DNA from: a virus
Taxonomy: Duplodnaviria; Heunggongvirae; Uroviricota; Caudoviricetes
DNA: 57,411 nucleotides
IMG/VR virus record: IMGVR_UViG_3300042465_005697
Span: 92,280 to 149,690 of that record
Reading direction: 5' to 3' (one strand)
The notes under the pieces are model-generated. The model worked only from the letters and a program-made list of their open reading frames with translations, searched no databases and was not told the origin of the DNA. The translations under genes and the position numbers were made by a program. Positions 21,130 to 26,841 of the stretch are shown in pieces. Within the stretch, counting starts at the first letter, position 1. Every line of letters begins with the position of its first letter.

Positions 21130-22641
21130 TTAAACAATTACTATATTGTGTTTTATTTTTTCAAAACTATTTTTTATTTTAGGAAATAAAATGTTATTAT
21201 AATCATAAGTTAATTTTTTTAAATTATCTTCATCTTCATTTCTTGTTGATGATTCATAATGATATGCAACGCAATTACTATTAATATAATTAATATAGCC
21301 ATTATTTATATTTTCAATATTTAATTCTACATCTTCAAAACAAGACGTATATTGCTCATTAAACATTCCTAATTTATTAAATATTTTATTTCTTATCATT
21401 AATAATCCCCCTGTGTTACCAAACACACTTCTAATATTGGTATTGAAATTATAATAATTGTGTAAATTATAATGACCTACTTGGATAGTTTTAGTGTTTT
21501 GGTTAAATCCAATCAACACACCGTCGTGTTGTATCGTATTATCTCCAAAGTGTAATCTACACCCAACAGTACCAACCCCATGATGCGTGTTAAAAACATC
21601 TAACATACCTGTAATAACATTATTAAGGATTTTAATATCATTGTTACAAAACAGTAAAAATTCATAATCATCCAATACGTGATTTTTAACTACGTCGTTA
21701 TTAATTTTAGCAAAATTATAATAATCGTATTCAATTAATTTTATATTTGTATAAACACCAATATCCAATTTTAGTTGTTCTTTTTCTTCGTCGGTTGATC
21801 CTGTATCCGCAATAAATATGTCAAATAAATTAGAGTTACAATTATCATAGAATGAATGAATACAATCCATTAACATATTAATTTTACCTTTTGTTGGTAT
21901 TATAATGGCAACTTTACCAAATTTTTTAAATGTTTTTTCTTTAATCTCCGGAACATAAACAGATTCGGGTTTAAGGTCTAATGGTAATTCACTTCCCCAC
22001 TTCTCAACGAACTTATCTTTGCTTTCCCAAAATTCTTGGTTTGGTCTTCCAACAGATTGATGTGTTATCTCAAATGATGAGGTTACACCAATCTTAACTC
22101 CCGATAAGTAATTTGGTACACAGAATAGGTGATCGTAGAAGTGGAACTTACCAATGGTTGTATCAAACATATGGTTGCACTTTGTTTTATCAAATGACAT
22201 AAACAAACCATCAATCGTTACTACAGGAATTAAAAATGGTAATTTTGGTGAATATTTACTTAAGAATTTTTTTTGACCATCAGGATGATGATAAACTTGT
22301 CCTACCATAGTTTGATTCATTCTATCCCAATAAACTCCTGATTCGGGAAAATAACAAGAACCTGCTTTTCCAATAATACCATAGTCGGGATTATCTTCAA
22401 AATCTTTTAATAATTTTTTACCCCAATTTTTTTCAAGTTTAATGTCGTTATGACAACAAACTACAATATCATATATTGATTCGGTAACACCTGAATTATA
22501 TACATTAGATAATGAATGTTCATTATGATTTTCATATTCTAATATTTGAACATCCTTTAACCCAACAGTTTGTAACAAATGTTGTCTAAATTTGTTATTA
22601 TATTCTTGATCTTTATGTGTTGAATATATTATTGTTATCAT
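21130..22641 (-). CDS. Tandem double glycosyltransferase (GT2-like + GT2)
   Basis: Two GT-A domains: IVVCCHNDI...TIDGLFM...FHFYD, then VAIIIPTKG...LLFCNNDI...FEDVELN. Confidence 0.85.
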   Translation of the reverse strand: MITIIYSTHKDQEYNNKFRQHLLQTVGLKDVQILEYENHNEHSLSNVYNSGVTESIYDIVVCCHNDIKLEKNWGKKLLKDFEDNPDYGIIGKAGSCYFPESGVYWDRMNQTMVGQVYHHPDGQKKFLSKYSPKLPFLIPVVTIDGLFMSFDKTKCNHMFDTTIGKFHFYDHLFCVPNYLSGVKIGVTSSFEITHQSVGRPNQEFWESKDKFVEKWGSELPLDLKPESVYVPEIKEKTFKKFGKVAIIIPTKGKINMLMDCIHSFYDNCNSNLFDIFIADTGSTDEEKEQLKLDIGVYTNIKLIEYDYYNFAKINNDVVKNHVLDDYEFLLFCNNDIKILNNVITGMLDVFNTHHGVGTVGCRLHFGDNTIQHDGVLIGFNQNTKTIQVGHYNLHNYYNFNTNIRSVFGNTGGLLMIRNKIFNKLGMFNEQYTSCFEDVELNIENINNGYINYINSNCVAYHYESSTRNEDEDNLKKLTYDYNNILFPKIKNSFEKIKHNIVIV

Positions 22642-23246
22642 ATTCCAGTACTTCCGAATCCTTTTTCTCCTCGGTCTTTATTATTTATGTTATCAACCTT
22701 TGTTAATTTGATCCATTTACCTGAAACCACAGGACTAATAACTGCTTGGGCAATTTTTTGTCCTTTGTTAATTGTAATATTATTTTTTGTCGTATTAAAT
22801 AATATAACTTGAATTTCTCCTGTATATCCTTGATCCACCGTCCCTGGAGAATTTAATACCATAAGACCTTGTTTTAACGCCAAACCACTCTTAGACCTCA
22901 CCTGTACCTCATACCCGTCAGGAATATCAATATGTAACCCCGTTGGAATTAATGATCTACCAAACGATTCTATTTCAATTTCTTCAGTTGAAAACAAATC
23001 AAACCCATAATCTGTTGGGTAAGCATATGACGGATCAATAGAATCAACGTTGGATTGAGAATACTCAACCTTCATTTTTTGTTCAAAGTTTGCCATATCT
23101 CGTTCAAGTTCGGCAACATCAACACCAAAGATATCCATTATGTTTTGGTAGTCAGGTTCTTCATCACCAAACATATCCTCAAGTTCTTGGAGATTTTCTA
23201 GTTGATTAAGTAAGTCTCCAAGATTTTCTTCTTCTTCGTTAATCAT
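22638..23246 (-). CDS. dut: Trimeric dUTPase with acidic N-terminal extension
   Basis: GFDL, RSKSGLALK, NSPGTVDQGYTGEIQV, KIAQAV, RGEKGFGSTG. Confidence 0.95.
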   Translation of the reverse strand: MINEEEENLGDLLNQLENLQELEDMFGDEEPDYQNIMDIFGVDVAELERDMANFEQKMKVEYSQSNVDSIDPSYAYPTDYGFDLFSTEEIEIESFGRSLIPTGLHIDIPDGYEVQVRSKSGLALKQGLMVLNSPGTVDQGYTGEIQVILFNTTKNNITINKGQKIAQAVISPVVSGKWIKLTKVDNINNKDRGEKGFGSTGI

Positions 23247-23962
23247 TTTAATTCCTTTAATTTTTTAATAGTATCAACCAGTACCACAACATCTTTTTCG
23301 CAGTAATCTGAAATCTCTTTTAACATATTTTTATTCCAATAGTAGTCGTGAACTTTATCTCCCGTCACTTCACCATCTTTTGGTGTTGGTATATCCAAAC
23401 AAGTACACATAAGATCCAACGATCCGATAGATGTGTAAGAACCATATTGCCAAATCTCTTTGGTGTCAATTGCCTTAACTTCCCAAGGTTTTGTATCATA
23501 CGATGGTAAAAGTTTTGACGGCATAATCCCATTTATAATCATTCGTTTTGCCATCATCGGAATATCAAAATTCTTTAGGTTATGACCGCAAAGATAAAAA
23601 TCCAATTTATGGCAACGATTTAACAAATCCCTAACTTGGATTAACACTTCCTTTTCGTCATCCCCAGAGAATGTTTGTTTTTTAACATCTCCATTGTCCA
23701 TAACAAAAGCCATAGATACACAAACAATCTTTGCAAATTCAGGAACAAGAGCTGCTCTTTTAACAAAAACTTTGTTTTTCAATTCAACCTCAGATTCATC
23801 ACCAGTGTTATCCTCTGGAAATCTTTTTAAGAACCAATCAAAATACTTATCAAACTGATCGGCAATGTTTGGATTGTTTTCTTTACAGGTGTCATAATCT
23901 TTACAACCACCCACAGTTTCTACATCAAGAAACAAAATTTTTGTTATTGGTATGTTAATCAT
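23243..23962 (-). CDS. Stand-alone 3'-5' exonuclease (DnaQ/PolB-exo-like)
   Basis: FLDVETV (ExoI), CGHNLKNFDIP (ExoII), YCEKDV (ExoIII). Confidence 0.9.
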   Translation of the reverse strand: MINIPITKILFLDVETVGGCKDYDTCKENNPNIADQFDKYFDWFLKRFPEDNTGDESEVELKNKVFVKRAALVPEFAKIVCVSMAFVMDNGDVKKQTFSGDDEKEVLIQVRDLLNRCHKLDFYLCGHNLKNFDIPMMAKRMIINGIMPSKLLPSYDTKPWEVKAIDTKEIWQYGSYTSIGSLDLMCTCLDIPTPKDGEVTGDKVHDYYWNKNMLKEISDYCEKDVVVLVDTIKKLKELK

Positions 23963-23965
23963 TTT

Positions 23966-25195
23966 TTATTTAATTATTGATAAGTAAAATTCTTTTCTAT
24001 CTATTGTTACCTTATTAAGGTCGTAACGGTCTTTAACCGTTTCGTATAATCTTTCACCCATATCGGTAATCATATTTGGGTTATCAACCAACTTCTTAAT
24101 ATATTTTGCCCAATCACTATGGTTATTATTTTTATTAACCAATAAAGCATTACCATCAGTAAAATTACCATTATTAAGTGAATGTTTCAAATCAATCGTG
24201 TATGGTCCAACATTAGATGCAATCAATGCCTTTTTATAAAATCCTGCCTCAATAACTTTAAGTTGTGATTTCATTCTGTTAAATACGTGATCAACAATTG
24301 GTGATAAAGAAATATCAAACTTAGAGTAGTTCTTAGCATATGTTGTTGTTGGTTTTGTCCATACTCTAACATAATTTTCATTTTGCCATCCAGGATATTC
24401 ACCATCCTCAAACTTATCCAAATACTCCTTATATTTTGGTGTAACAATTTTATATTTGTCGGTAAAAATTTCTTCATACTTAACCCAAACAGTTTCTTCA
24501 GGTTTAATTGCCCGTTTTGTTTCTTGGTTTGTTTGTTTGTTAATTTCTGTTACCGTCCCTCTTGTGTCAAAACCACAAACATAATATTGTATTTTATCTT
24601 TGATTGGTGATAATTTTGAAACCATACCATCTAACAATTTTAAATCGTGTAAATGTGATGATCCACCCAACCAACCAACTCTTACTTTATCAGATGGTAA
24701 TGTTGGTTCATTAAATTGAGATTCCTTTGGGTTAATTGCGTTTGGAAATACAAAAACGTTTTTATTAAATTTTTTAATTTCAAATGCAAAAATCTCAGTT
24801 GTTGTTGTAACGTAAGATGAAACCTTAAGATTTGCAATAATTTTTTCGTGAATCTTATTATTTAAAATTAATTGTTGAATTGGGTGTTCCTTTGTTGGTA
24901 ACCAATAATCATCAATATCTGCAATAACAATTATTCCCATAGATTTAAGTTTCTCAATCAATGCGGGACATTTATCATAATCGGTTCCGATAGTTCTATG
25001 GTAATGAACAATATGGTATTGCAACCAATAATTCATATCGTCAATTCTTGGTTGATAATCTATTTCAACATGAAAATCATCAGGATATAAATTTTGTAAC
25101 ATTACATGGGGGTCGACAGAGCGAAATTTACCTCAGCCAACCCCAGAAGTGTCACTTGGGAGAACCAATACTCTGATTCTCTCACGACCATTCAT
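23966..25195 (-). CDS. GT-B glycosyltransferase with an in-frame TGA at codon 21 (candidate recoded gene)
   Basis: ATG 25195 is in frame with the track ORF starting at 25102: MNGRERIRVLVLPSDTSGVG-TGA(25135-25133)-GKFRSVDPHVMLQN. C-terminal DISLSPI...FNRMKSQLKVIEAG is GT4-like. Confidence 0.75.
25109..25144 (-). other. mRNA hairpin enclosing GGC-UGA-GGU
   Basis: GGGGUUGGC (25144-25136) pairs fully with GUCGACCCC (25117-25109): 9 bp including 2 GU pairs. After a U-U mismatch, GAG pairs with CUC. Confidence 0.7.
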
Positions 25196-25199
25196 GGGG

Positions 25200-26108
25200 T
25201 TATTTTGCGTCATATTTTTTAATTAGTTTATTTATTATTGTGTGATCCTCCTTTAAATCAGATTCCCACACTATTTCTAAATTATAACCCTTTTCTCTTA
25301 TTAAGTCAATCTTGTTTTTATCATACTCCCACAATTCTTTCGCAGTCTTTTGTTTTTTTTGGTTAAAATAATCGGGACCATATTTTTTTGGATTACAATG
25401 CCAATAATCACCATTATATTCAATAACCAAATTTAATGATGGGATAAAAATATCACATATTTTAGTTTCAACCCTTAATGAGTGTTGAACAACATATCCC
25501 ATTTTTCTAATTTCAACAACTATTTCTTTTTCCTTTTTAGATCTTATAACGGATTTAAGTTTCCCTAACCTCCTCGTTTCCTTCATCGTATCAGACATAA
25601 TTTTTCTTGCGTGTTCCATTTCACCATTATCCCATTTTTTCTTTAGATTAATTGATGATTTTTTCCTCCACATTAAATTTGCCATACTATTTTTATTACC
25701 GGTTGCCTTACCCTTACGATTTTTAGAAATTTTTTCCTTTGATTCTTTAGAATGTGTTTTACCAAAAAATGGGTTGCCCTCACCAATTTGGCGAATAAGA
25801 CTACATTTTTTACATAACGAATTTTTTAAATTAAAATAATTTCTACAAGCAATAGTCCTATCTTTTGATGTTGTCTTAACATCAAAACCACAATCAGGAC
25901 ATTTCCTCAAAATAACATATTTGTTATCATTTTTGATTATTTTTAAAGAATTACATCTATCTCTTTTTCTGGTTACGTTATGTTTTTTAAGTATTTTTAA
26001 AATTGTTGGTTTTGACACGAATAATTCTTTTGCCAACACTAACGAACTTTTACCCCCCAAGTATTCTTTAATAATAAATTGTTCGTTTAATTCTATTTTT
26101 TTTGCCAT
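25200..26108 (-). mobile_element. Free-standing homing endonuclease gene: HTH + Zn-ribbon + NUMOD3 + Vsr/DUF559-like PD-(D/E)xK nuclease
   Basis: CPDC...CKKC; GNPFFGKTHSKESKEKIS (NUMOD3); CDIFIPSLNLVIEYNGDYWH...WE.YD..K...IVWE (Vsr/EDxHD-like). Confidence 0.85.
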
Positions 26109-26125
26109 AATTAATGTGTATATAT

Positions 26126-26133
26126 TATAAATA
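26126..26133 (-). promoter_or_regulatory. TATTTATA motif
   Basis: 17 nt upstream of ATG 26108, downstream of a terminator. Confidence 0.55.
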
Positions 26134-26167
26134 GTCCCGTTCTATCAAAAGGTAAAATACTAATAAC

Positions 26168-26197
26168 AAAAAACCCCCAATCTTAAGAATGGAGGTT
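26168..26197 (-). terminator. Rho-independent terminator
   Basis: Minus strand AACCTCCAtTC-ttaa-GAtTGGGGGTT, running into a T tract, after the stop at 26230. Confidence 0.7.
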
Positions 26198-26229
26198 AGC
26201 CGATGTAATAAAATACAAAGGGGTGCGTA

Positions 26230-26841
26230 TTATTCTGAAACTTTACGAACTCTTAATAGTTTTCCTTCAAATATATGTTGGCCAACTCTGAATTTAAAAA
26301 CTTCATTTGATTTTTTTGTGGATTCAACTAACAGACCATTTTCTTTAAGAACGTCTTGTACTGTTTCCCTAACGATACTTCTAATATCATCTGAGGATAT
26401 TGAGACTGATGGTTGTGTTTGTTGTGGTTGTTGTGTTCTTTTTGGGACATTCTCATTAATTAAATCACCATTTGCTTTTGTATTCATTAGACGAGATGCT
26501 TTCTCAATTAGATCACTTGATAACACTGAATTATTTACCGATGAATTTGGTTGTTGTATTGGGTGTTCCATCATTAACCTTTTAATTTCATCTGGTAGTT
26601 TTGAATTTGCTATTCTATCTGCTGATGGAACTTCTGTATTCATTTTTTGTATTGGAGCCTCTGTTAGGTATTCCTGTGGTAAATTATAATTTGCCGATAC
26701 TGGTGAGAAGTCCTCAACCATTGGTGATGACATTGATTGTGATGGAATTGATTGTGATCCACCTCTACCCATTGTATCATGCTTTTGCATGATTTGTTTG
26801 GATATAATTAACTTATTTATTAAATCTTGTTCTGCTGACAT
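26230..26841 (-). CDS. Hypothetical protein (Q/P/S-rich, low complexity)
   Basis: 203-aa ORF coupled to the WYL gene. Confidence 0.7.
   Translation of the reverse strand: MSAEQDLINKLIISKQIMQKHDTMGRGGSQSIPSQSMSSPMVEDFSPVSANYNLPQEYLTEAPIQKMNTEVPSADRIANSKLPDEIKRLMMEHPIQQPNSSVNNSVLSSDLIEKASRLMNTKANGDLINENVPKRTQQPQQTQPSVSISSDDIRSIVRETVQDVLKENGLLVESTKKSNEVFKFRVGQHIFEGKLLRVRKVSE

Follow-up and report, generated by a model that had tools for sequence, protein, structure and literature searches.

The locus raises two linked questions: how a glycosyltransferase (GT) gene with a stop codon near its 5′ end can still give rise to its protein, and why the interruption lies beside a gene for a homing endonuclease. 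The window, which is the whole stretch of 57,411 nt analysed here from a giant freshwater phage, reads GGC TGA GGT (25138–25130) at GT codons 20–22. Uninterrupted homologues read SGV--GKFRS at this place, and the window has exactly two extra codons, GGC and TGA. The original prediction had placed GGCTGA about 65 nt downstream, which agrees well with its location at 25138–25133, at a distance of 57 nt from the ATG at 25195 and of 62 nt from where the endonuclease stop codon ends. Comparison with related alleles makes it probable that the locus is a mobile cassette (26154–25130) combining a Vsr-like homing endonuclease with a GT 5′ end that is rescued by a ribosomal hop. The features on which this reading is built are collected in Table 1.

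Table 1. Features of the endonuclease/GT locus in window coordinates; all lie on the minus strand.
Feature	Position	Strand	Remarks
Terminator-like hairpin with T-run	26168–26197	minus	AACCTCC ... GGGGGTT; of the upstream 203-aa gene; flanks the cassette
32-nt element	26124–26155	minus	TTACCTTTTGATAGAACGGGACTATTTATAAT; upstream of the endonuclease start; contains TATTTATA
Inserted cassette, 1,025 nt	25130–26154	minus	Replaces 93 nt of the endonuclease-free relative L128
Homing endonuclease gene, 302 aa	26108–25200	minus	Free-standing; stop TAA at 25202–25200
GT frame part 1	25136–25213	minus	MTQNNP-MNGRERIRVLVLPSDTSGVG; cassette-borne; ends with the take-off codon
Helix 5′ arm	25195–25201	minus	AACCCCA; exact complement of 25145–25139
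Helix 3′ arm	25139–25145	minus	TGGGGTT; abuts the take-off codon directly
Take-off codon	25136–25138	minus	GGC (Gly)
In-frame TGA, skipped 3-nt gap	25133–25135	minus	Directly after the take-off codon
Landing codon	25130–25132	minus	GGT (Gly); 6 nt from the take-off codon
Optional take-off hairpin, 9 bp	25109–25144	minus	GGGGUUGGC (25144–25136) pairs with GUCGACCCC (25117–25109)
GT frame part 2	23966–25132	minus	Landing codon to TAA; resident gene; frame open to 23966

The reading of the neighbouring gene as a NUMOD3- and Vsr-like endonuclease is borne out. From N- to C-terminus the predicted protein would comprise a helix-turn-helix-like region, a CxxC...CxxC zinc finger, a NUMOD3 motif, a helical linker and a Vsr-like nuclease domain. 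Against Pfam, NUMOD3 scores above its cut-off (E = 9.7e-8; 32.3 bits against 20.4), while a weak match to the PF18741 nuclease falls below (E = 1.3e-3). The protein also matches PHROG homing endonuclease families and has weak similarity to the I-TevI DNA-binding domain (1i3j). For an AlphaFold model with a mean pLDDT of 86, the best PDB matches returned by Foldseek are Vsr endonuclease (1cw0_A and 1vsr) and the catalytic domain of I-Bth0305I (3r3p_A), each with a probability of 1.00 and, for 3r3p, a TM-score by target of 0.75 and an rmsd of 2.7 Å; the E-values are only 6e-3 to 8e-3 because the alignment covers ~110 of the 302 residues. Across 23 endonuclease homologues, zinc-finger residues C70, C73, C99 and C102 are invariant together with D219, E230, D234 and H237, which sit in the motif IEYNGDYWHCNP and which may be catalytic, by similarity to Vsr. 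By modelled fold, NUMOD module and mobility, the enzyme is predicted to be a member of the Vsr-like (I-Bth0305I / EDxHD) homing class. It shares with I-Bth0305I the same catalytic-domain fold, NUMOD-type DNA-binding modules and mobility in phage genomes, whereas I-Bth0305I is encoded in an intron and the enzyme here is free-standing between genes, with a sequence identity of about 21%. A second copy of the gene was not found in the same contig.

Comparison with L128, a nearly identical phage that lacks the endonuclease, sets the boundaries of the inserted block. In blastn the window matches L128 over 27300–26155 (95.7%) and 25129–23000 (92.9%) with nothing between, and the intervening block contains an upstream element, the endonuclease gene and a replacement GT 5′ end, together with the codons for take-off, stop and landing. 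The right edge of the block against L128 coincides with the hop site; past this edge, 7 of the first 21 nt (to about 25112) are mismatched, and the 33 nt after them match throughout. Against GenBank phages, blastn found no close relative. Close relatives are polymorphic for the endonuclease at this one site: the window, L128 as an empty site and L003, which has a different endonuclease of the same family, carry GT genes that are at least 95% identical. Spread among GT backgrounds is also apparent from comparison. Hop state changes 3 times on the endonuclease tree as against 11–15 times on the GT tree, which is the pattern expected of a mobile cassette, and of 33 endonuclease-free alleles whose 5′ end is native, none has the insert.

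Association between insert and endonuclease nevertheless has exceptions. The insert is absent beside 11 of the 33 distinct GT-linked endonucleases; two derived endonuclease subclades and one outgroup pair lack it. Conversely, the hop is retained with the endonuclease fragmented or wholly lost in L089, L094/96 and L028–30, the last of these lineages having kept the insert and a cassette-type 5′ end while losing the endonuclease. The insert is neither required by the endonuclease family nor dependent on the endonuclease once present, and cases in which it stands without the endonuclease look like loss after joint arrival. The comparisons largely support inheritance of the endonuclease gene and the insert as one mobile block, with these exceptions. 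The original prediction that the two spread together is sustained by the block edge against L128, by the tree counts and by the lack of the insert from native 5′ ends, and is qualified by the insert-free subclades and by L028–30; co-occurrence across relatives takes the form of a hop state clustered on the endonuclease tree, accompanied by a partial independence of the kind that the prediction had named as counting against it.

Upstream of the endonuclease, a terminator had been proposed to insulate the gene. The hairpin is present, but it belongs to the preceding gene and lies outside the inserted block; hairpin and T-run also occur in L128, where homology continues through the hairpin down to 26155. 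A consensus terminator scan of 24900–26400 called no terminator, this hairpin being missed because its loop is longer than the limit of the scan. The endonuclease gene had also been credited with its own TATTTATA motif. The motif is there, with a copy of this type, CTATTTATA, at 26134–26126, but as a stand-alone promoter word it was rejected, since 2 were found where 1.86 are expected by chance. It lies, however, inside the 32-nt element, which most related cassettes of both endonuclease classes retain ahead of the endonuclease gene; the composite motif of this element has a single occurrence in the 150-kb contig. The element may act as a promoter or regulatory site carried by the cassette.

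The architecture of the hop site is defined by comparing distinct hop alleles, 35 in all, of which IMG/VR and assemblies supplied 27 and a separate metagenome scan 8; as these alleles are kin, counting them overstates how many events were independent. Over the roughly 35 distinct cassette alleles, 18 versions of the site are seen. Those with a 3-nt gap are GGC TGA GGT, GGT TGA GGT, GGT TGA GGA, GGT TAA GGT, GGT TAA GGA, GGT TAA GGC and AGT TAA GGC. The others are, at +5, GGT TA GGT and AGT TG AGC; at +7, AGC TGAA AGC, AGT TGAC GGC and AGC TGAC GGC; at +8, AGC TGACA AGC and GGC TGAAT GGT; at +9, AGC TGACTA AGC and GGT TAACCA GGC; at +10, GGC TGAATTA GGT; and at +13, GGC TGAATTTAAA GGA. The take-off codon is GGC, GGT, AGC or AGT in every hop allele and never GGA or GGG. 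It is followed directly by a stop in 18 of 18 variants, with TGA, TAA and TAG all used, and the landing codon lies 5 to 13 nt from it across gaps of 2–10 nt. Landing codons are cognate in 15 of the 18 variants; the other three are AGY to GGC, where tRNA-Ser(GCU) can pair via a first-position G·U, and the reverse pairing of GGY to AGY is absent from all 18. The second metagenome scan contributed four new variants, every one obeying the rule of take-off, stop and matched landing.

Shifts of +5, +7, +8, +10 and +13 change the frame, so that the conserved protein can be regained only if the tRNA re-pairs at the matched codon. The product expected after hopping, SGVG|KFRS, is the same as in uninterrupted homologues, and the normal protein would be restored in this way in every hop allele. 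The comparison gives strong support to the proposal that recoding rescues GT translation, the 6-nt form being one of 18 variants with a stop and a matched landing codon throughout. Two codons ahead of take-off, Gly is encoded by GGG or GGA in all 27 of the 27 hop alleles compared, as against 17 of 33 uninterrupted ones. A search for the same arrangement of a codon, a stop and a matched codon in the genes downstream of 24 more distant endonuclease homologues that are not GT-linked (L101–L124) gave chance-like matches only.

Two starts are available to the GT frame. The statement that the endonuclease ends 4 nt before the GT start is true for ATG 25195, from which it is separated by CCCC (25199–25196), but a GT frame beginning at the alternative in-frame ATG, 25213, has a 14-nt overlap with the 3′ end of the endonuclease gene. 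Many relatives have CTG or CTT at the codon equivalent to 25195, leaving the 25213-type ATG as the sole usable start, and GT translation may begin there, within the endonuclease gene. Both parts of the frame bear the marks of selection when alleles are compared. In part 1 the amino acids are kept while Ser alternates between AGY and TCN codons, which shows protein-level selection on this frame, and part 1 carries a strand and Gly loop (VLVLPSD..GVG) conserved in all homologues. Part 2 matches PHROG 7162, a glycosyltransferase family (E = 2e-44), has a weak Pfam match to Glyco_trans_1_4, and in the window is 97% identical to the gene of the endonuclease-free relative. Between hop alleles, the dN/dS of part 2 is 0.10–0.35 with dS of about 1–1.9, and GT frames stay intact down to about 40% identity, which indicates that the downstream GT is under purifying selection despite the stop. 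In public pipelines such GT genes are called as truncated (378 aa) or are translated by the wrong code, with TGA as W; for P0033, P0042 and P0084, protein and DNA agree only with TGA=W. P0016 (378 aa, 98% identity) was considered as an interrupted allele and rejected, its contig merely beginning inside an uninterrupted gene.

A further signal lies in the RNA around the site. The 7–11 nt directly 5′ of the take-off codon are predicted to form a helix with a segment 55–63 nt upstream. The helix was examined by a register search, used because MAFFT misregistered the 5′ arms of two spacing classes, and in an ungapped subset of 10 deep-clade alleles. Exact complements of 5–11 nt were found at a fixed distance in all hop alleles but one; the helix of L050, with G for A in its 5′ arm, appears only with G·U pairs allowed. 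In uninterrupted alleles the best complementary run is 0–6 nt, at scattered places. Within the deep-clade subset 95.4% of cells are paired compared with 31–46% when the arms are slid, and covariation is 0.197 against 0.053, with 0 of 500 shuffles as high. Compensatory changes include GGGG/CCCC against GGAG/CTCC, and at the pair beside the take-off codon, which involves the wobble base of a Val codon, all of CG, AU, UA and GC are seen. A consensus fold of the whole −45 to +60 region over all alleles gave nothing useful. By the register search and the subset, there is a covarying helix abutting the take-off codon that is specific to hop alleles, and its role in hopping is a matter of conjecture.

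The take-off hairpin, which is predicted in the minimum-energy fold of the window, would hold the stop and landing codon in its loop and would compete with the 5′ helix for the G run. Across 25 alleles 81% of its cells are paired, with covariation no higher than in shuffles; all 9 pairs form in 10 of the 27 hop alleles but in none of the 33 uninterrupted alleles. Stimulation by the G run in a Shine-Dalgarno-like manner, by analogy with prfB, was set aside, because Shine-Dalgarno sites are scarce in the genome (8 of 130 genes) and the G run is unlikely to act in this way. The likely host type also barely uses Shine-Dalgarno pairing.

These observations can be assembled into a model of the hop. 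A ribosome at GGC would hold peptidyl-tRNA-Gly in the P site, and its A site would be occupied by UGA, which is decoded slowly. The tRNA would release GGC, the mRNA would slide forward by 6 nt, and the tRNA would re-pair with GGU, so that decoding restarts at AAA and yields a product ...SGVG-KFRS... (junction VLVLPSDTSGVGK) with no extra residue. Re-formation of the 5′ helix behind the ribosome probably promotes the forward slide, an idea modelled on T4 gene 60, in which pairing of mRNA leaving the ribosome drives bypass. The hop output may be small, given the low efficiency of synthetic stop-hops.

Competing accounts of the stop codon differ in how they treat the remainder of the family. Were the TGA read through, or reassigned to Trp or Gly, the GT would simply gain Gly-X (VLVLPSDTSGVG-X-GK) without any hop. 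Taken alone, the in-frame 6-nt insert of the window is compatible with this, UGA is generally the leakiest stop codon, and public gene callers already use TGA as W for such genes. Related alleles with TAA or TAG, or with shifts of +5, +7, +8, +10 and +13, could not be rescued in this way, and the matched second codon and the helix would be left unexplained; moreover, no suppressor tRNA is present among the 25 tRNA genes of the contig, and TGA terminates 9 of 61 long ORFs of the window. We consider this account very improbable, and the allele comparison excludes readthrough for the hop-allele family. Equally slim is the chance that endonuclease insertion has killed the GT, or has divided it into a peptide of 20–26 aa and a re-initiated protein. 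A precedent for division exists in T4-like phage genes split into working pieces by homing endonucleases (topoisomerase and NrdA, as reviewed in 10.1101/2022.08.31.505936), and the window has an in-frame ATG (25102) ten codons past the landing codon. Yet 12 of 27 hop alleles lack any ATG, GTG or TTG in the first 20 codons past landing, part 1 bears the conserved strand and Gly loop, the low dN/dS at saturated dS and the intact frames are not those of a dead gene, and neither version explains the matched codons. That the extra bases are missing by the time of translation, through RNA editing, slippage during transcription or a DNA subpopulation lacking them, or are an assembly error, is scarcely credible, and nothing in its favour was found. 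The hop site is found in more than 40 contigs from many samples, the independent DNA runs X3 and X5 have the same letters with no indel, and no homopolymer run is available at the site to support slippage. One RNA-library contig (X19; 25042–25229, no gaps) spans the site, still carries the insert and has no reported joints, though it may be contaminating DNA, and such contigs are no proof of transcription; a second, X17, was discarded as bridging because it extends only 18 nt past the site.

What the insert does for the cassette is a separate matter. In the model favoured here, GT alleles that lack the endonuclease would be cut by it close to the conserved Gly-loop codons, the ensuing repair would copy the cassette in, and the insert at the cassette edge would protect cassette-bearing genomes from renewed cutting. 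Such self-immunity against the cassette's own endonuclease, which the original prediction ascribed to destruction of the recognition site by the insertion, is suggested circumstantially by the position of the insert at the cassette edge and by the precedent of T4 MobA. Alternatively, the hop may be real while the insert is a junction scar of the first cassette recombination, rescued by the hop and hitch-hiking without any protective effect. This would suit an insert placed exactly at the cassette edge, derived endonuclease subclades that manage without it, and its persistence after endonuclease loss, as expected of something hard to remove. We regard it as unlikely, in that the endonuclease clade has retained the site through many changes in gap length and in that, in T4, the analogous insert rather than flanking polymorphisms blocks MobA (10.1101/2022.08.31.505936).

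The closest parallel to a hop-rescued, endonuclease-bearing cassette is T4 mobA/gene 60, a mobile cassette with an insert that prevents nicking by MobA (Bonocora et al. 2011, as reviewed in bioRxiv 10.1101/2022.08.31.505936). In both systems an endonuclease gene stands beside an insert within a conserved gene, take-off and landing codons match (both Gly in T4 and in the window), and a stop follows take-off directly. Both cassettes also bring their own flanking coding sequence, have been inserted repeatedly into related phages, and have lineages in which the bypass persists although the endonuclease has decayed or gone. The differences are substantial. The gap here is 2–10 nt (a shift of 5–13 nt) rather than 50 nt, the take-off codon is GGY or AGY rather than GGA, the interrupted gene encodes a glycosyltransferase rather than the large subunit of topoisomerase II, and the endonuclease is Vsr-like with NUMOD3, in contrast to the HNH-type MobA. 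The best-supported signal here is the covarying helix 5′ of take-off, whereas the conserved element of gene 60 is its take-off stem-loop and its 5′ stem-loop is not conserved; there is no sign here of a Shine-Dalgarno element in the gap, and the present hop is a prediction from sequence comparison. The GT cassette is an analogue of T4 mobA/gene 60, not a member by descent.

Other systems share single aspects of the locus. Free-standing T4 seg/mob endonucleases (such as SegF and MobE; 'intronless homing') similarly lie between two genes, with presumed cleavage of the neighbour gene in endonuclease-free relatives and co-conversion of the flank. Their protection usually comes from target sequence differences, on which the insert-free subclades here, such as L003, also appear to rely. 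They differ in belonging to the GIY-YIG and HNH nuclease families and in having a recoding element only with MobA. In the byps of Magnusiomyces yeast mitochondria, many short non-coding inserts are likewise skipped via matched take-off and landing codons; these are mitochondrial, have gaps of 27–55 nt and to our knowledge are not linked to endonuclease genes. Synthetic stop-hops of +5 and +6, in which 9 nt specify one amino acid, were reportedly obtained in E. coli by Weiss, Dunn, Atkins and Gesteland in 1987. They resemble the GT site in their matched codons around a stop and in frame-independent re-pairing of the peptidyl-tRNA 5 or 6 nt downstream, but were engineered, whereas the site here is natural, conserved over deep divergence and provided with a dedicated RNA helix. 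Their efficiency is described as low in the 2022 survey (10.1101/2022.08.31.505936). According to a 2016 recoding review (PMC5009743), no natural in-frame stop-hop was known.

On balance, and with only modest confidence, we favour the view that the GT cassettes are a second independent family of bypass elements borne by homing endonucleases and the first natural, maintained stop-hop, with helix-driven hops of 5–13 nt, probably in phages of a Bacteroidota-type host, and with the insert serving as immunity. Gene 60 has been the model for ribosomes skipping mRNA, and the 2022 survey still calls the T4 cassette 'unique' (Manning and Atkins, 10.1101/2022.08.31.505936). If the present reading is correct, the coupling of a homing endonuclease to bypass arose at least twice, and bypassing would offer selfish DNA a general means of changing a conserved target site while leaving the protein unharmed. 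The family would then also provide very short gaps in a naturally occurring series, from +5 to +13 and accompanied by covarying signals, that is tractable for studying tRNA release and re-pairing, and would let one ask whether an upstream helix can push the ribosome forward.

In the window, the glycosyltransferase (GT) gene that follows the endonuclease gene reads MNGRERIRVLVLPSDTSGVG from its nearer ATG, meets a TGA and continues as GKFRSVDPHVMLQN..., open as far as 23966. An alternative in-frame ATG lies upstream, and many relatives can start the GT only at its equivalent. The gene, assigned to the glycosyltransferases by PHROG 7162 (E 2e-44), has thousands of homologues in the protein collection, the nearest full-length of which (404–405 aa, 80–97% identical) have SGV--GKFRS where the window has SGVG*GKFRS. 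Proteins with GVGWGKFRS are obtained from their DNA only when TGA is taken as tryptophan, and each has an endonuclease gene upstream; the tryptophan is therefore a gene-calling artefact, and diverged phages conserve the TGA. For the public GT proteins P0033, P0039, P0042, P0080, P0084, P0088 and P0089, callers give either TGA as tryptophan or a truncated 378-aa protein, and both types of call are artefacts of annotation caused by the hop site.

Coordinates of the cassette, its signals and related features
Feature	Position	Strand	Remarks
Endonuclease ORF	26108..25200	minus	302 aa, TAA stop
32-nt element TTACCTTTTGATAGAACGGGACTATTTATAAT	26155-26124	minus	contains TATTTATA; 5' of endonuclease start
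GT ATG	25195	minus	four bases after endonuclease TAA
Alternative in-frame GT ATG	25213	minus	overlaps endonuclease 3' end
Helix arm TGGGGTT	25145-25139	minus	
Helix arm AACCCCA	25201-25195	minus	
Hop-site TGA	25135-25133	minus	
Sigma-70-like site TTGACT-17-TATAAT	25281-25309	minus	11/12 matches
Equivalent site in L003, a near-identical phage	L003:1669-2470		holds short endonuclease, 254 aa, that overlaps GT start
25-tRNA gene cluster	contig G000 C1:45221-65267		all outside window

Sampling of IMG/VR gave 42 GT loci and 80 endonuclease loci, and some 60 of the latter have a GT directly 3' (37–80% identity to that of the window). Inserts in these relatives fall at the identical GT codon and share one architecture, in which a take-off codon (GGC, GGT, AGC or AGT) is directly followed by TGA, TAA or TAG and then by a matched landing codon 5, 6, 7, 8, 9, 10 or 13 nt from take-off. 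The landing codon specifies the same amino acid as the take-off codon, except for AGY to GGC in three cases. A separate scan of metagenome contigs, made as a replication, contributed eight further alleles and four variants not seen before (GGT-TAACCA-GGC, AGT-TGAC-GGC, AGC-TGAC-GGC and GGC-TGAAT-GGT), in all of which the rule held, bringing the total to 18 site variants and approximately 35 distinct alleles. In every case, a P-site tRNA that paired anew with the matched codon would restore the conserved protein as ...GVG|KFRS... or ...GVS|YFRS.... The AGY-to-GGC pairs could be held by tRNA-Ser(GCU) through a first-position G.U; the reverse, which would require an A-C mismatch, occurs in none of the 18 variants. 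The take-off codon ends in a pyrimidine in all hop alleles, and uninterrupted alleles often have GGA or GGG at that codon. The original prediction that recoding rescues GT translation is thus supported by comparison across the 18 variants.

Other explanations for the interrupted frame account for less of this family. Readthrough of the stop codon could not repair shifts that are not a multiple of three, and an alternative code is opposed by the lack of a suppressor tRNA in the contig, by TGA being an ordinary terminator of this genome and by the use of all three stops at the hop site. Were the GT a pseudogene, one would not expect the dN/dS of 0.10–0.35 found in the part from the landing codon onward (part 2) between hop alleles, with dS near or above 1, nor a whole deep GT clade that carries hops of five different gap lengths with frames intact. 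A two-piece gene with re-initiation fits poorly with the 12 of 27 hop alleles that have no start codon in the 20 codons past the landing site. Assembly error is countered by retention of the insert in independent DNA contigs. Against removal at the RNA level, a contig from an RNA library spans the insert, extending 91 nt to either side of it and having no reported joints, a weak argument given that RNA libraries can contain DNA. Comparative sequence evidence therefore supports a ribosomal hop as the only explanation that covers the whole family of sites.

In hop alleles, the take-off codon is immediately preceded by 7–11 nt complementary to a stretch 55–63 nt upstream; in the window the two are TGGGGTT and AACCCCA, respectively. 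Nearly all have exact complements of 5–11 nt in this fixed geometry, with 5-nt cores in four alleles (L047, L069, L133 and L050, the last visible solely when G.U pairs are allowed), and no comparable complement was found in uninterrupted alleles. Compensatory changes include GGGG/CCCC versus GGAG/CTCC and CAG/CTG versus CCG/CGG, and all four Watson-Crick pairs are seen between the wobble base of the Val codon adjoining take-off and its partner, itself a wobble position. When ten deep-clade alleles are aligned without gaps, pairing holds in 95.4% of helix cells, compared with 31–46% when the partner is slid, and the covariation score of 0.197 (0.053 in shuffles) was matched by none of 500 shuffles. 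Synonymous sites are more conserved before the hop site than in part 2, for example pS 0.00 versus 0.64 between the window and locus L048. A second candidate hairpin in the window (9 bp, take-off codon in the stem, stop and landing codons in the loop) has no covariation support. For gene 60, pairing of mRNA exiting the ribosome has been proposed as a driver of forward bypassing (bioRxiv 10.1101/2024.12.09.627546). By analogy, we conjecture that, with the take-off codon in the P site, the 5' helix would be melted and that on re-forming at the ribosome exit it would pull the mRNA forward.

The coordinates and labels originally assigned to the endonuclease ORF, its NUMOD3 and Vsr-like character, the GT and the stop are all confirmed. 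The ORF has a Pfam NUMOD3 match better than cut-off and also matches PHROG homing-endonuclease families; CxxC...CxxC and the motif D219...E230-YNG-D234-YW-H237 are invariant in 23 homologues, and the best PDB matches of an AlphaFold model (pLDDT 86) are Vsr endonuclease and the I-Bth0305I catalytic domain. The terminator-like hairpin predicted to insulate the gene is present at 26197-26168 but is not part of the cassette, since it also occurs in the endonuclease-free relative, outside the insert. Likewise, TATTTATA does not stand as a motif by itself, the bare word occurring at chance frequency, but it does as a piece of the conserved 32-nt element. That element is kept upstream of the endonuclease in most related cassettes, including those with endonucleases 40–80% identical, its composite motif occurs once in the 150-kb contig, and it may serve the cassette as its own promoter or operator. 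The sigma-70-like site within the endonuclease 3' end, some 85 nt before the GT starts, could be a cassette-borne GT promoter or a mere effect of coding; that it matters in a host with non-sigma-70-type promoters is doubtful.

Comparison with L128, a near-identical phage without endonuclease from a 127.6-kb contig (GT 97% identical), delimits the cassette. Identity is 95.7% down to 26155 and 92.9% resuming from 25129, and 1,025 nt of the window (25130-26154) stand in place of 93 nt in L128 (L128:2961-3053). The block therefore comprises the 32-nt element, the endonuclease gene, a different GT 5' end (MNGRERIRV... versus MKEKVKV...) and the insert. Past the right edge, the first 21 nt contain seven mismatches and the 33 nt after them contain none; the edge is thus at the hop site or approximately 20 nt past it. 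In L003, the third of these near-identical phages, a shorter, different endonuclease of the same family takes the same place and the insert is absent. One intergenic site is thus found in three states among phages with GTs at least 95% identical: empty, occupied by the long endonuclease together with the hop, or occupied by the short one with no hop.

On the endonuclease tree the GT-linked enzymes all fall in one group and the hop state changes three times, looking ancestral to a strongly supported 31-sequence clade and lost in two derived subclades, whereas on the GT tree it changes 11–15 times, with endonuclease-free alleles scattered in between, as would be expected of a cassette moving among GT backgrounds. 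The insert is absent from all 33 alleles of an unbiased GT sample that lack the endonuclease and have a native 5' end. The predicted joint spread of endonuclease and insert is supported by these observations and by the block relative to L128, with the insert-free endonuclease subclades and the endonuclease-free L028-30 as exceptions. The cassette can be seen at stages of decay: L089 and L094/96 retain the hop beside endonuclease fragments, and in L028-30 the endonuclease is wholly gone while the 5' end of cassette type, the helix arm and a +5 hop persist. In L028-30 the place upstream of the GT is occupied by a 253-aa leucine-rich-repeat-like protein of GTPIQSLPDNLYVGG repeats on the opposite strand (L028:1508-2269). 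In T4 it is reportedly the bypass insert, rather than nearby polymorphisms, that blocks MobA (Bonocora et al. 2011, reviewed in bioRxiv 10.1101/2022.08.31.505936). Given this precedent and the position of the insert at the cassette edge, the leading idea is that it would protect cassette-bearing genomes from their own endonuclease; a credible alternative is that the insert is a scar of recombination which hopping rescued. As insert-free endonuclease subclades exist, there are other routes to coexistence with the enzyme besides the insert.

The source IMG/VR viral contig has 149,690 bp (completeness estimate 51%), of which the window takes up 92280-149690; GC content is 31%. Contigs of relatives reach 256–304 kb, which indicates a jumbo phage; the stretch recurs across many studies of freshwater and lake metagenomes. 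Across the contig, a Shine-Dalgarno-like word precedes just 8 of 130 long ORFs, position -3 is A in 68% of them and A is also enriched around -11. Few Shine-Dalgarno words together with A at -3 are typical of Bacteroidota hosts, and this upstream pattern suggests a host of that type. The contig's tRNA cluster includes tRNA-Ser(GCU) and tRNA-Gly(UCC) and lacks tRNA-Gly(GCC), so the tRNA expected at the window's GGC take-off would be the host's. The conserved block around the GT gene (window 21130-23962; L128:4222-7218) holds a DnaQ-like exonuclease (PF10108), a dCTP deaminase/dUTPase-like gene and further GT2-type transferases. The GT may act in nucleotide or DNA sugar modification, which would account for its being a conserved homing target.

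The T4 mobA/gene 60 cassette has a similar working arrangement but is no relative: here the host gene is a GT, the nuclease family is different, the gap is 2–10 nt rather than 50 nt and the conserved RNA element differs. At the ribosome level, the GT hop resembles the synthetic +5 and +6 stop-hops (Weiss et al. 1987). A 2016 review knew of no natural in-frame stop-hop (PMC5009743), a 2022 survey called the gene 60 cassette unique (bioRxiv 10.1101/2022.08.31.505936), and the literature collection searched yielded neither a natural stop-hop nor a comparable site described in a glycosyltransferase gene. The GT hop cassette is of high interest for the recoding and mobile-element fields.
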